Shown here: positions 4,861-47,141 of the stretch, piece by piece
Position numbering within the stretch: the first letter of the stretch is position 1
Layout of the letters: every line of letters begins with the position of its first letter
Assembly (NCBI GenBank): GCA_965113315.1
Contig: OZ220368.1
Length of the DNA stretch: 64,000 nucleotides
From: Podarcis vaucheri
Taxonomy: Eukaryota
Strand: one strand, 5' to 3'
The notes under the pieces: generated by a model
The model's input: only the letters and a program-made list of their open reading frames with translations
What the model was told of the DNA's origin: nothing
Database searches by the model: none
Program-made: the position numbers and the translations under genes

Positions 4861-5599
4861 CTCAACGTGTATGAAATCTTACTGCCTTATAATATGACAT
4901 TTGTCTCTAAGGAGCTACACAAGCTATACATTTTTTAAATATATACAACCACTGCCGCAGCTTACTACTAGCATTTTGATTGTGTTCTTAATGTTATATG
5001 TCCCGAGACTTCAGGGATAAGGCTGAATAAGATTCCATAAATAAATACTGCAATTTTATCCTCTTAGAATTCAATGAATGTTGTACTTTTTAGAGGGCAG
5101 GGGGAAAGAGGTGTAAAAATCAAGTCTAGTCCCACTGTATCCCAACAACTGTCATTGAATATGACATTTTAAATTTCAGCAACATTTTTGAATGATTGTA
5201 ATTATTTTTACCCTACTGATTTTTTGGGGGGAGTGGGGATGGGATTCCTTCTGGGATATTCTAGAATGGTGAAGTGCTCTCCTTCTACCTTAAAGTGCCC
5301 TAGGACTAAAACTGGGCCTGGTGTCTGGCATAACTGGATTGAATCTTAGCCTGACATACCATTGCTCCCCCTCCCACAGAAGAGGGATAGTGGTGGTTAG
5401 GCCTTGCTAGAGTGAACTGAGGCTTAGCACGTAAGCATAGCAAGCCTGGATAATTGCTGATGACCCATCAAGTTGAAGAGCATACCCTCCTTTCCATGGA
5501 GACAGTGGTAATGGATTGGGCATGGTGCTAACAAGATGTAGCAGGTAAGAAATACTCTAAAACACCAGAGAACATTCAGCAAAACAAAATAATACCCTT

Positions 5600-29195: not shown

Positions 29196-32100
29196 CTTTA
29201 AACAATCTGAGTCTCATGTACCCTAGGGATTGCCCTTTTCCATCTGGCCATTCCTCAATGTTACTTCGGTCACCTAACCTTTAAAATCTGGGAAGAGGGC
29301 AGCAAATAAAAAGGGGCAGGTTGGCAGGGACTTGAGATATGGACTTTGCTATTGTTCCACCACCATGCAAAACAGATTACCTGCTGAGATCTGTGAAAGT
29401 TATTGCCTGTTATTTGTAAAGCATTTCAGTTTAGGCATGCTGTTAAACTCAGTTTTAATTAACATGTTTGATTTGGGGTAGCTTCAGATTTATTATTTTT
29501 TTGGTATGTTGGGAGTTAAGGGTTTTTTTTTCTCCTTTTAAAGAAATTAGTTGAGTTAAAAATTCTACAGACTCTGCCCATGTTGTCAGCTCTGGGCTGC
29601 TCACCACTGGCGTAGGCACACTGTTGTTGTTTAGGCTCTGTCCCCCATCCATGCTTCAGTTTGTGGTGTATGTGGACATGTATTTGGAGGTACTAGTCAC
29701 ACTTCCCATCATTTATCTCAAATGCAGAAAAGCAAAAGTAGAAGTTCCCCCATAAACACATGGGAAAGTCTAGGAATATTCGAGACGGAATCCTATGTTC
29801 TTTAACCAGTCTAAAAGGCATGTTCAGGGATGATAACAGAATCAAAATAACTACATCAGTTCTAATAGAAGTGTCTTCGCAGAAGACAAATGTTTCTAAA
29901 GCAGGTGTTTTTACAGCAACCTTCTTAAAAGTGTGGAGAATAGAATTCTTAGGCTCCACAAGAAATTTTAATTGTTCCAAGCTTGTAGCCTTGCCTATTG
30001 CACTGCGGAAGCTACTAGTCTGGCTGGATGTTTTCATGTTTGTGTCTGGGGAGCATAGCGGTTGCTTCTGTGTCGCTCTAAGAATTTTATGATAGTGGTT
30101 ATTTTAATTCATTTGGTTTCCTACACTGTAGCTGAAAATGAGGTGTGGCATGCATAGGAAACTAAAACGAAGGTGGATTGCTGGAAATATTCAGCTTTTC
30201 TTGCAGCCAGGGGACAAGAAGTTCAAAACAGAAAGGGTGGAGAAAAGCAGTCCCAAAACTGTCATCTTTGGGACTGCTGGCTACCACTATTGGCAAGCAG
30301 TGATTGAGGTTTAGTTTTGAAATGCATTGACTTACAGACAGTTCCACTCTGTTTTCTGGTCCAAAGAGGCAGAGTAGGGAGTTGCTTTTCTTCGAGGAAG
30401 CCTGTCTCACTTGGGAAACAATTGCCCTTGAGAAAAATAAAAGCTCAACTTAAAAGCTTCACCCCCAGTGCTTGTGTAACCATAGAGCCCTGAAGCCAGT
30501 GTAGTTTTGCACTGTTTTATATTTAACTTCCCTAAGCGCCTAAAACTAAATGGAGCAAGTTCATGGCTGGCACATCACATTGAATTACCTGTTTGGTTTA
30601 TCTGGTCAAAAGAGCAGCAGAAATCCCTCTGCACCATTTGAAGGAATCTGTCAGCATTTCCGTTATGAAAAGTCCGGCCTCTCCTGTGCTTTTAATTACG
30701 TTGAAAGAATTTGCATCTGCATATAAATGCAGTTTAATATATAGCACAAGCACATTTTATTTCTAATAATGAAAAGGAACAGTTTTGCAAGCTCAAACTT
30801 ATGTTTGTTGCAACCACATTCATTTAAATGCCCAGGGGGTGAGGGATGGAAACCCAAAACACTTGGATAATCTATGGTTCTTCTCTCTCTCAGGAGGACC
30901 ACTGAAAATGAGAATTCATTAAAATGTTGGCAAATATTTAAAAATCCCATCGACTAGCTCTGAGGGAGAACTGTAGTAAAGACTGTCTAGGGGAACAAAA
31001 CAATCTTTCAGACTAGTTTAAAATCAGCAGAGTAGTAACCATACAACTGTAAGATGTTGCAACACATCCAGCATTATTTACATCAATGCTTACATTACTG
31101 AAACAGAATGTGAACTCAGCAGAGGTTAGTGTATCTTTATTAACATTTATGAGCAGTCCATGGTGCAGTGCCACGGGCTGGTGTGGTTGGGCACAGGTTG
31201 AAACCCAATTTCCTGACTGAGGGCCAGCACAAGAACCCTGCCCAGGGTGCTGATCCTTTACAGCATGGCTGCCTGCGTTCTGGGCCAGAGGAGGCAAATG
31301 AGTGACCAACAGAGCAAGCAAGGCATGTGTTGCTAGGGACGATGGGAATTGTAGTCCAAAACATCAGCAGGGCACCAGATTGGCAAAGGCTGAACTACAC
31401 CATGATTTATCTTGGCCTAGGAAGACAATGACGACACATTTTTGATACCTGTGCAAATGTTCCTAGACCAAGGTCATCTCCAATGATCAGCCAACTGTTG
31501 CTGAGCAGGAGGCATTTCAGGTACAACCAAACAGCTGATCGGTGGTGCCTGCAAACCCAGCCAAGTGGCACTTTTATGCTGCCCCATACGGGCAATTAAG
31601 TGTGGCTGGGCCAAAATGGTCTGGCAGGAGCAATTAAGCCCGTGGGTCAGAGATTCCCCACTACTGCTTTAAAATAAACATCCACAATTAAAAAGTACAA
31701 CAAACAATTCCATTAAAACAGTATAATAATCAAAACAGTTAATTAAAGCAGTTTCAAGTCATGAGATCAGCAGAATGGAGTTACAAGAGCCCCCGCTTAA
31801 GGGTGTGTTGGATTTTTTAACTTTTCAAATTCCAAAAATGAGGATTGCTAAAAAGTTGTAACATGATTTGGGAATCCGAAACATATATTGGTTAAATTGA
31901 TATAATTTACTTTTGCTTGTAAGCAAAATGTGTGTAAAATTGCATAGAAATCATTAAAAATGATTTCCAAGTAATTGCTGTTATATATATTAATATTTGT
32001 TGTTATTATTCAACATTACCTGAGGTTTTCATAAGGTAAAATTAAACTTCCTTGCTTGTCTCAAAGCAGTTTATGTGCTTTTTTATCCAATGTAGACTTA

Positions 32101-41624: not shown

Positions 41625-41960
<336 letters not shown>

Positions 41961-42605: not shown

Positions 42606-44853
42606 ACACAGGCATCAGTGAATTACCAAGTACCTTTATTTGTAACTACTGAGACCCTAGAAAAAAGCATTGCTGTCCTGTCTAAGATGTTGTGTGCAAT
42701 ATGAATGTGTATTACATGTGTGAGTTCTGTCTCTTTACACAGATATATTTAAAGCTGTGTGGGGCTAGCTTAGCTGAACCACAACTGTTGACCCCCACAG
42801 AGGGCAGCAAGCACTTTTGTTTTCTGTAATTTACTAGACTTATTACTTGCTATACCATTAACACGACAAGTTATGAAAACTAAAGACTGCTTCATGCAAA
42901 TCTTTGCCCTACATGGATATAATATCTAGGTCCTGGTAGTCAGCAGGACACCCTCTAGTTGTTGTGGACTCTAGTATTTGGGAGGCCCAGCCATGGTGGT
43001 GAATGGTCAGGGATGATGGGAGTTTTAGTTCACATTAGCACCCTGATCTGGATGGATTCCAGTGTCCAGAAACTATATGGTAGCTGCTTGAAAACTTACC
43101 ACATGGTCACCTGAAATCACATGGGGAGGTAGTATTCGGTAGCATGCAATTTAAGCCGATTGTAACTGGTGCACCACAACCACCCCAGAAATCAAGGGAA
43201 GCGGGGAGGTAAAAAGGAACGAAGTTTAACGCTGAGATAATTCAAGCAAAACTGCTTAACTGCCCTAGTTTAAGTTCATATTTTCAAGCACCAGGTGGTA
43301 AGTTCTGAAGTGACCACTCTCACCTGAATCTGTGCAGGGAAAAATAGGTACTCTGTTACTTCTAAAGTGCAGTAGGGATATTTTTTACCCTGCCAGGAGT
43401 ACAATGATCAGAAAGACTTGGGGAATGCATAAAACAGATGAAAATCTCTAAATGTTGGGGAGCATGGCTGCCCCACCCTGTGTGATTTCATAAGGCAGAC
43501 CAAGTGCTGGTTCAAAGCTACAATCCAGAAATATTGTGTGTGTGCGGCTGCACCTACACAGTATTGACATGCAGCATGAAATATACCTGCAGTCTGTGGG
43601 TGACATTCTTTATTTCTGATACCTACACCCTGTAATAAAAAGCTAGCCCCCAACCCACCTCATGCTGTCCCTTTAAGAAAATATCTGCACCCCGAAATTT
43701 TCATTTCATTAACTAGAAGAGATCAATTCACATCCAAAGGAAGTCAAAATTTTATGTTATTTATGTGCCCCCCCCAGTTTTATTGTTGTTCTGATGTATC
43801 AATAAAATCTATTTTTTAAAAAAGCAAAAGCACATCCAAATCATCTCCCTCATTGGGCATGTCCCCTACTGTGTCTGCCATCTGGAGGAGAATGGCCCCA
43901 TTCACACCTCGCAGGAATGTTGGCAAATGCTAATGATCAAATTCTGTTCTGCGGATGTGACAAATGTGGTGTCAAGGAGAGGGGGCTTCCCGACTGGTGA
44001 ATTTCTGTCCGACTTGGAAATCCACAGAGTGCCTTGCAGCCCACCCCATCTCAAAGACTGGAGTGGGTGGGCCTGTTTTGTCACACCCTACTTTTTCAAC
44101 ATGGATGGATCACAATTGGACATGTGTGCACACAGCTGTGTATGTACCATGTACCTCTCATACGGTGAGAGGCTATACATACAGCATTTTTGGATTATAA
44201 ATGTGAGAAACAGTCCTTTAACCTCTGTGCTGATGTATGTGGATTATTAACAGAGAAGTCATACTAATGTAACAGTTTCATGCCATCAGGACAGTATTTT
44301 CAAATTTCCAGTAGTGACACTATGAAATAAAAATCAGAACAAGCAATTTAACTTAAAAGAAGGCAAACCACAAGCTCCAAATTACTGGAAACACTTGTCA
44401 AACCTGCAACAAAGAAAATAAGAGGCCTGATTAAGGTGCACACAGTTACAGCATTTTATGAAACTTGGGTAGCTCCCTTACCTTTCTAAACAATATTGGG
44501 TTTGAGTCACATTTTCAGTGACAATTTCACACTATAAGCCCAGTGACACCAAATCTTTGTTATAATAAACTCTGATTGAGTGAGACTTTTAAAGAGTCAT
44601 TTAACAATACACTTAGGAAATCAGAATGCTTGTAGCTGTTGCACCTAAACCATCTTAGAAGACCTGTAACAAAAGAAAAAGTAGAACATGCACACAAAAA
44701 TCACACACTATTTTTTGTGTGTGTGTGTTTGTGCATGGTGTTAAAGAAAATGAACTGAAGTCCAAACGAAAAGACAGAAAACATTTGGCATGCTGGTGGG
44801 GGGAAAAAAGGAAAGAATTAAAAACAAAATAAAGTTAGTGATTAAAAAAAAAA

Positions 44854-44993: not shown

Positions 44994-46853
44994 CAAGATT
45001 GCTCAATGGAACTTTTATTAATAATGCTCCATTTTCAAAGAAGAAATTCGTAACATCAACTCCTGTACATCTAGCGGGTCTAATGAATCAGCAGCTATAG
45101 AGCTGCTTTTACTTCCACAATAAACAAATGACATTTAAAAATGTGCTGGTAATGTAGAAAGGTAACATTCCACCATCTTACAATTTGATTCATCACAGAA
45201 GAATTCCCTTGCGGTTTTGCTTCTGCACACTATATCAGCCTGAAATTGTAACTATTGCTATGATTTCCACTATTTACCTTTCCATTGCCATTAAACCTGT
45301 AAATAGAAATAATAATAAAAAATACACTGGTGGCAGCCGTTTAGGATTGTACTAGTATTGTGAATTGTAGACATTTTTCTTTTGTTGGGAGAAATTATTT
45401 TTGATGCCTAAAAGCCAGAGCAGATTATCCTAACATTTTTCAGATCAGATCATTAAACAAAGTTGACAATGTTTAGTATGATGGGCAGTCACAATGCAGC
45501 ATGTATAAAGGCCTCCCCAACTTAAAAATTTATGGAGCTTTCCATATTAATGTATTAGGCAAATGGGTTTTTGTTTCCCAAGGGGTCAAGGTTGTAGGCA
45601 ATAAATAACGAACTGAAATTAGCTACATTGTTCAGAACAATTAACTTTAAAATAAAAATGTAACATCCATCACACTTCATCAGAAAAACCAAGAAGTGTT
45701 CTGTAAATGCTTTAAATGTGAAACAATTTGTGAATATTCTGTTCAGAAATCTGTATCTGCACAGAATGCTAAACTCTGGTTTTGTTTTAACCTTGGTTAG
45801 TTTAAGCAGATATCAATTTGTCTCAACTGACAAGTAAACAAGGCATGGCTTGTTTCCCCAGAACTTGGGTTTACATTCCAGCTCCTCTTGCCTCCACAGT
45901 TCGGCAAGCATGTAGGAAAGGTGGCCAAACAAACCATCATTAGGCAAGACTGTTGAGAGAGAGGACATAACATTGAACCACAGTTAAAACAACCTAGGAT
46001 TTGTGTAGTCAACAACAAACCATGGCTTCACATTGTGATGGTACCAGAAAAAAACCATGGGCTGACACTCAAACACATCCCACTTTGGTTAAACTAACCA
46101 TGGTTTAGTATTATGTGTGAGGGAGGCCACTTTATATTTATTTCTATCTATATATGTATTAAACTCAATGAACACATACTGAAATAAAGCTGTGTGTTAT
46201 TTGCACTTTATCTGAGCACTTCAAAAGCAGGCATTTAATGCCAATAGGTACTAATGCTTTCTCTATGGAAACCAATCCAAATGTAGAAACAAGTTTACGC
46301 AAAAGGCTGCCATGAATAGGGAAAGTCCCCACAACAGTAGTGCATAAGCAGGGCAACTATACTGTGTTAGAGACATCTAACAGGTGATCAGTATTGTCAA
46401 CTTTGATTGCCAGAGAAAAAGATCTAGTATATAACCTGCTTCCTGCACCTTTTGCTTAACAAGGGATTGCTGCAAGCTAATCATATCCTGGGGCACATGA
46501 CAACAAGTACATAGTTGTTGTTTTTTTTACTGTATCTCTAGTTCCCTTGACTGGGGCTTTTATTTTTAATTACCCTAATGCTATGTTAATGTTTTGTATC
46601 TTTTTGTATCAATGCACCATGTATAAATGAAAAATGAATTCTTTTTCTCATTTTTATGTGGGGTAATAATTCACACATATTCCTTTTCTTGTTTACGTGA
46701 TTGTCCTATCATTCCTTTGCCCAACAAAATCTGGTCAAACCACAGTTCTGTCAACTCAGGAACCTGCAAAAAGATGGCCCACCGAACTCCCAGTCATAAG
46801 ATACTGAAAAGTAACCTATAACAACAATAAAATAAATTATTTGGAGAATGTTA

Positions 46854-47141
<288 letters not shown>

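Follow-up and report, generated by a model that had tools for sequence, protein, structure and literature searches.

The 64,000-nucleotide stretch of Podarcis vaucheri DNA analysed here (the window) carries ELAVL4, the gene for HuD, on its minus strand. The gene assignment made in an earlier note was confirmed: 49606-49451, 47080-46855 and the exon starting at 41952 match chicken HuD (P0011) with 100% identity, and the ELAVL paralogues, at 92%, 85% and 77%, are located elsewhere in the genome (G000). Exon 5 (46855..47080, minus strand, on which all splice-related features given below also lie) ends at 46855 in phase 2, as had been claimed, and exon 7 starts at 41952. The coding part of exon 7 (41628..41952) comprises the hinge end and RRM3. 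A longer exon 7 acceptor is seen in mammals, birds and turtles (LMSGPV..., PLFLLG...); the segment 42010-41953 keeps no frame open for it, and because a stop lies just before FSPIT, the longer-exon-7 hinge variant may be absent in the window species. No readable part of the window encodes the canonical exon 6 peptide (best score 14/61 between exons 5 and 7). Synteny with L007, the bird-like orthologue described below, places exon 6 in an N stretch further along the intron that contains the candidate, about 330 nt downstream of the candidate donor; the corresponding spans measure 141 and 143 nt.

Intron 5 is longer than 1.8 kb. The minus strand within it reads a U-rich tract, TACAG|, 19 nt (45296-45278) and AAG|GTAAAT, which matches the earlier quotation exactly; the AG|19 nt|GT pair claimed for this intron is thus present, letter for letter. 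The U-rich tract and CAG acceptor occupy 45297..45326, the candidate cryptic microexon, which would add RFNGNGK and shift the frame, 45278..45296, and the donor GTAAAT 45272..45277. The 200 nt around the candidate gave a single match genome-wide in a search that skips simple repeats. Elsewhere, 46012-46128 is a repeat-like segment on which foreign reads and contigs land with loose ends.

Splice sites were scored with a rounded, approximate matrix, not with MaxEntScan. On this scale the candidate acceptor reached 11.2 bits, against 8.2 bits for exon 5 and 8.4 bits for exon 7, and the donor 8.3 bits, against 7.7 bits for exon 5. The candidate is the sole AG-(3-27 nt)-GT pair at its summed score within 21 kb of ELAVL4 introns. 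Markov nulls trained on the ELAVL4 introns, with score thresholds set by the candidate itself, predicted 0.26-0.40 pairs this good per 22 kb. For introns 5-6 the expectation was 0.06-0.09, and for a 64-kb window with both strands counted it was 1.5-2.3. Real sequence amounting to 228 kb contained 6 pairs that reached the summed score, and these used 4 distinct acceptors, that of the candidate included. Because chance gives about 2 such pairs per 64 kb, the candidate looks good and yet is of a kind that a whole-window scan is expected to meet somewhere. Other high-scoring short AG-GT pairs on the minus strand lie at 29287, 17414, 43329 and 43110. Two variants of the candidate were rejected, namely a longer exon that combines a CAG further upstream with the unchanged donor (49 nt; 48 nt in L007) and has a weak acceptor and an unshared frame, and recursive splicing at the AG|GT acceptor, where CAG|GTTTAA falls below the 2.5-bit donor cut-off.

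The earlier note had taken a UGC upstream of the pyrimidine tract as a mark of SRRM4-dependent neural microexons, a reading that did not survive closer inspection. The sole UGC within 45 nt upstream (45333..45335) lies at -39 to -37, is separated from the tract by an AG at -32/-31, and is absent in L007; its occurrence is at chance frequency, as TGC is present in 685 of 1266 (54%) 43-nt windows on the same strand. A study of SRRM3/4-dependent microexons reports that 74-79% of them have a UGC somewhere between branch point and AG and that its position matters; the positional walk covered the stretch from the end of the tract to the AG, and a UGC is not strictly needed for the SRRM4 response (10.1101/2024.09.17.613571). 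In the TAF1 microexon (34'), UGCs are reported at -18 and -29, within the tract (PMC6948980). Neural microexons are also described as having a long branch point-to-AG distance, with a median of 45-47 nt (10.64898/2026.01.16.699960); a putative branch point near -46 would enclose the UGC of the candidate, but also the intervening AG. Judged by its letters, the 9-nt pair at 29287, with UGC at -14 and -17 and a zone of 41 nt free of AG, comes closer to the SRRM4 pattern than the 45296-45278 candidate.

A scan of metagenome contigs, from which 80 loci were kept, yielded one ELAVL4 orthologue with whole introns 5 and 6, L007. This orthologue is bird-like: the residues RPLFLLGR in the frame preceding exon 7 are those of quail P0272, and the SMSDSF* read from intron 6 resembles scrub-jay P0293. 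Deep intron 5 gave no alignment between the window and L007. In contrast, a 44-nt island (45265..45308, minus strand) aligned collinearly with L007 4539-4581, with 32 of 44 columns identical (73%). The probability of such an island was P=0.008 against both introns (5.8 kb; 1000 dinucleotide shuffles) and P=0.0025 against the collinear 350 nt, and of 170 deep-intron probes none reached its score, although two came within one point. Of the island, L007 retains part of the tract together with the donor, which reads AAG|GTGAAC and scores 7.1 bits. However, L007 has CAA where the candidate has its acceptor CAG, and the AAG that follows one base later scores -0.3. The homologous segment of L007 is 18 nt long and has no UGC, and the exon defined there by the AAG is 17 nt and reads S followed by a stop. 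The expectation of a conserved AG-19nt-GT arrangement was therefore not borne out: L007 has no matching acceptor, length and frame differ, and the donor is kept. So the site carries some old element, but not a conserved AG-19nt-GT exon. As two taxa give no direction to this change, the AG may have been gained in the window lineage or lost in that of L007. No sequence homologous to the candidate was found in the ELAVL2, ELAVL3 and ELAVL1 introns of the same genome, and in the ELAVL2 pair with L008 the sequence ahead of exon 6 had no conserved island outside the 60 nt next to the exon.

Joining exon 5, the 19 nt and exon 7 gives a translation of ...RFNGNGKVFSDHH*. The predicted RFNGNGK and VFSDHH were reproduced as claimed, but VFSDHH* arises only when exon 6 is skipped, in which case the stop lies in exon 7, the last exon. 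When exon 6 is included the frame stays shifted; in L007 this frame meets a stop at the sixth of the 13 codons of exon 6, which leaves 21 nt to the last junction. NMD acts on stops that precede the last junction by more than 50-55 nt. Since the stop is either in exon 7 or, as read in L007, 21 nt from the last junction in exon 6, it should escape NMD by both routes, which agrees with the earlier expectation, and the candidate does not have the stop of an NMD-coupled poison exon. The product would lack RRM3. In HuC, RNA is bound by RRM1-2, self-interaction requires the hinge as well as RRM3, and splicing regulation requires RRM3 (PMC3643579); by analogy with these domain roles, an RRM3-less HuD could act as a competitor. 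Annotated ELAVL4 models without RRM3 do exist, namely P0126 (XP_023405387), which ends at exon 5, P0248 and P0252, which end after exon 6, and P0293 and P0297, which have other tails. The tail of gecko P0297 gave a weak match at 43205 (score 30/70). The exon 5 donor is AG|GTAA (46855-46849), so that read-through into intron 5 yields R and then a stop and intron 5 retention leads to an immediate stop; the elephant isoform P0126 ends exactly at this read-through point.

Evidence for use of the candidate was sought in proteins, reads and the literature. The protein set comprised 383 sequences, assembled from the best 120 of 1102, 331 and 292 matches and one cluster look-up; 343 of them contained the exon-5 end and 185 were of the ELAVL4 type, snake and lizard RefSeq isoforms included. 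Neither RFNGNGK nor VFSDHH occurred in any of the 343 Hu proteins with the exon-5 end among the matches listed. The clusters were represented by their representatives and at most 15 members each (15 of 1002 for the main amniote cluster), and because clusters hide members and annotation pipelines miss microexons, the survey is a weak one. Reads from 4 of the 24 listed runs (X1, X3, X21 and X23) were compared with intron 5 and the exon-5 end and showed no joints; because depth on the exon-5 end was zero, they are silent on inclusion or skipping. A 160-nt X3 contig of a close relative (depth 2.7; its RNA origin is a guess) passes through both sites unspliced and in collinear order, as pre-mRNA or DNA would also look. 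In this contig the 19-mer and the AG/GT are unchanged. It differs from the window at 5 positions in 160 nt, three of them at -23 to -30, and these may include errors at a depth of 2.7; a 173-nt contig from deeper in the intron, by comparison, showed 0 differences.

The candidate exon was not described in the titles and beginnings of abstracts retrieved on ELAVL4 microexons, poison or alternative last exons, HuD exon 6 variants and RRM3-less HuD. The accessible part of one study mentions ELAVL4 isoform switching, there without a microexon in ELAVL4 (10.1101/2023.03.25.534016). The MicroExonator supplements (PMC7821500) gave 0 matches for Elavl4, searched also with a mouse gene id and coordinate prefix, and the control Apbb1 likewise gave 0, which makes this search uninformative; the zebrafish microexon supplements (PMC12626424) gave 0 matches for elavl4 in a search run without a control term.

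Downstream of exon 6, three acceptors in intron 6 proved to be shared with L007. The first is a module of branch point CACTAAC, pyrimidine tract and CAG acceptor at 44792..44840 (exon start 44792; L007 5010-5053), about 116 nt after the exon 6 donor when the distance is taken in L007; it scores 15.5 bits in the window and 12.4 in L007, and its branch point is identical in the two. The reading from its L007 homologue, SMSDSF*, matches the tail of scrub-jay HuD isoform X7 (P0293, SMSNSF). The second acceptor (14.8 and 13.5 bits) lies at 44624..44682 (exon start 44663; L007 5156-5177) together with a TAG|GTGCAA donor at 44645. This donor is weak (3.0 bits) and sits inside a 30-nt block identical in L007 (44653-44624); the exon it would close measures 19 nt in the window against 22 nt in L007, and the two versions share a frame and each end in an in-frame TAG. 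The third branch point-tract-CAG module (44403..44445; exon start 44403; L007 about 5390-5432) scores 13.8 and 11.4 bits and includes an 18-nt block identical in L007, and comparison with L007 revealed no conserved donor downstream of its acceptor. Probes over the three acceptors scored 30-36, against 11-16 for the nulls. On this alignment, 44792, 44663 and 44403 are much better conserved than the candidate and are the better lead, and 44663-44645 appears to be a better conserved microexon or last-exon candidate than 45296-45278. Among the three acceptors, RNA-level support is confined to the first, through the scrub-jay annotation P0293, and the intron-6 tails RSSKMV and RWASQMV were absent from the 343 Hu proteins among the matches listed.

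The earlier note had also named U/AU-rich tracts as Hu binding sites. In human HuD, the Hu-responsive elements map downstream of exon 6, in a region 44-94 nt from it, rather than at the candidate, and AU-rich blocks upstream of exon 6 play a minor role (PMC2887941). By analogy of position in L007, the human Hu-responsive region would overlap the branch point and tract of 44792.

Taken together, the candidate is, on balance, likely a cryptic (pseudo-) microexon that is mostly skipped, and not a regulated neural microexon. The missing acceptor in L007, the misplaced UGC, the 0/343 proteins, the number of pairs expected by chance, the unspliced contig and the lack of a homologue in the paralogues speak for this interpretation. 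Against it stand the facts that the candidate is the top-scoring pair in the introns and sits exactly on the conserved island, that the donor is kept and the AG/GT is unchanged in a close relative, and that the 17-nt AAG exon of L007 would give the same truncating outcome. Under the cryptic-exon interpretation, a short old intronic element of HuD would already carry the U-rich tract and a donor-like motif, and because these are in place a single base (CAG here, CAA in L007) may suffice to make it exon-like. From the exon-definition problem of very short exons we infer that, without a UGC well placed for SRRM3/4, an exon of 19 nt would not be recognised efficiently. Because the candidate has none of the SRRM4 architecture on which exons this short depend, it would be skipped, and exon 5 would join exon 6 or exon 7 directly. 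Leaky inclusion would produce HuD without RRM3, from a transcript not subject to junction-dependent NMD, presumably at noise level.

Some of the same observations could be accommodated by a real, truncating sauropsid microexon of low inclusion, which would have kept strong sites in the window lineage but shifted or decayed in that of birds; we consider this unlikely. Selection would act there only on the donor and on ending before RRM3, leaving length and peptide free to drift, and the product would be an RRM1-RRM2 HuD that, by analogy, binds RNA but is unable to multimerise. The best pair in the introns of the gene, an L007 island centred on it with the donor kept, and 19-nt and 17-nt versions that both truncate before RRM3 suit such a role, as do the HuC data, in which RRM1-2 bind RNA and the hinge and RRM3 serve self-interaction (PMC3643579). 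It is weakened by the very weak L007 acceptor (-0.3), by the absence of the candidate from the annotated isoforms (343 proteins among the matches listed) and by the one unspliced contig, and the same truncation is available by intron 5 read-through (R*; P0126). That donor and tract are conserved and the exon is not would rather suit a decoy element, in which the donor-like motif and tract bind U1, U2AF or Hu without productive splicing and, together with the intron-6 acceptors, tune exon 6 inclusion or intron 5 retention. The length of intron 5, above 1 kb, is in keeping with this, as are annotated isoforms that end at exon 5 or just past exon 6 (P0126, P0248, P0252 and P0293) and decoy exons described as conserved, inefficiently spliced and often accompanied by competing sites (PMC6097662). 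We nevertheless regard a decoy as quite improbable, as the island is weakly conserved (73% over 44 nt; score 18 versus 30-38 for the exon-6-proximal blocks) and Hu regulation is reported to persist in human HuD reporters that retain no more than 119 nt ahead of exon 6 (PMC2887941). The reading of the earlier note, a neural microexon that depends on SRRM4 and keeps its AG-19nt-GT layout throughout amniotes, has in its favour a length within 3-27 nt, a strong donor and a neural gene, but is hardly credible in view of a UGC that is misplaced and absent in L007, an unconserved acceptor, length and frame, and no protein record among the 343 proteins in the matches listed; for birds it is contradicted by L007.

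A mostly skipped cryptic exon would matter little. If the candidate or the intron-6 acceptors were used in neurons, they would provide a route to a stable, RNA-binding HuD without RRM3, the part that in HuC is needed for multimerisation and splicing regulation (PMC3643579), and would add a negative arm to the known positive autoregulation of exon 6. Attention shifts to 44792, 44663 and 44403, the acceptors conserved with the bird-like L007. In a broader scheme, which is decidedly speculative and which we think improbable, hidden splice sites conserved in sauropsids would form a ring round exon 6, with the candidate upstream and the three acceptors downstream, 44663-44645 among them as a frame-conserved, stop-ending microexon of 19/22 nt. 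Hu proteins would use this ring to switch their own pre-mRNA to an NMD-resistant, RRM3-less HuD, giving a dominant-negative feedback loop. No such loop was described in the literature searched.

Among known systems, HuD exon 6, a 39-nt alternative hinge exon (PMC2887941), shares with the candidate the gene, the neighbourhood and U-rich intronic surroundings. Unlike the candidate, exon 6 preserves the frame, is Hu-regulated and occurs in annotated proteins of animals ranging from sharks to mammals, and the candidate falls outside the 140 nt upstream of exon 6 reported there as most conserved in mammals (PMC2887941). With SRRM3/4 neural microexons the candidate has in common a size within 3-27 nt (19 nt, between AG and GT sites), a U-rich 3' region, a good 5' splice site and a neural gene. 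It differs from that class in having its UGC at -39, beyond the tract and an AG and so outside the usual placement, in an acceptor and length unconserved in the one orthologue, L007, where members of the class have splice sites and length conserved across vertebrates, and in shifting the frame, 19 not being a multiple of 3, whereas frame preservation is typical of the class (PMC6948980); its inclusion is putative. The decoy exons of retained introns in SF3B1 and OGT (PMC6097662) likewise have cryptic sites in an intron of more than 1 kb of a splicing-regulator gene and would truncate if included, but are much better conserved than the candidate. The RRM3-less ELAVL4 models share its predicted domain content (RRM1-RRM2, no RRM3), but none of them uses its peptide. 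Pseudo-exons have a good splice-site consensus within introns but no regular inclusion. The candidate resembles them in its intronic position, in site scores on par with those of real exons and, probably, in being rarely included, and differs from a purely neutral pseudo-exon in sitting on a weakly conserved island.
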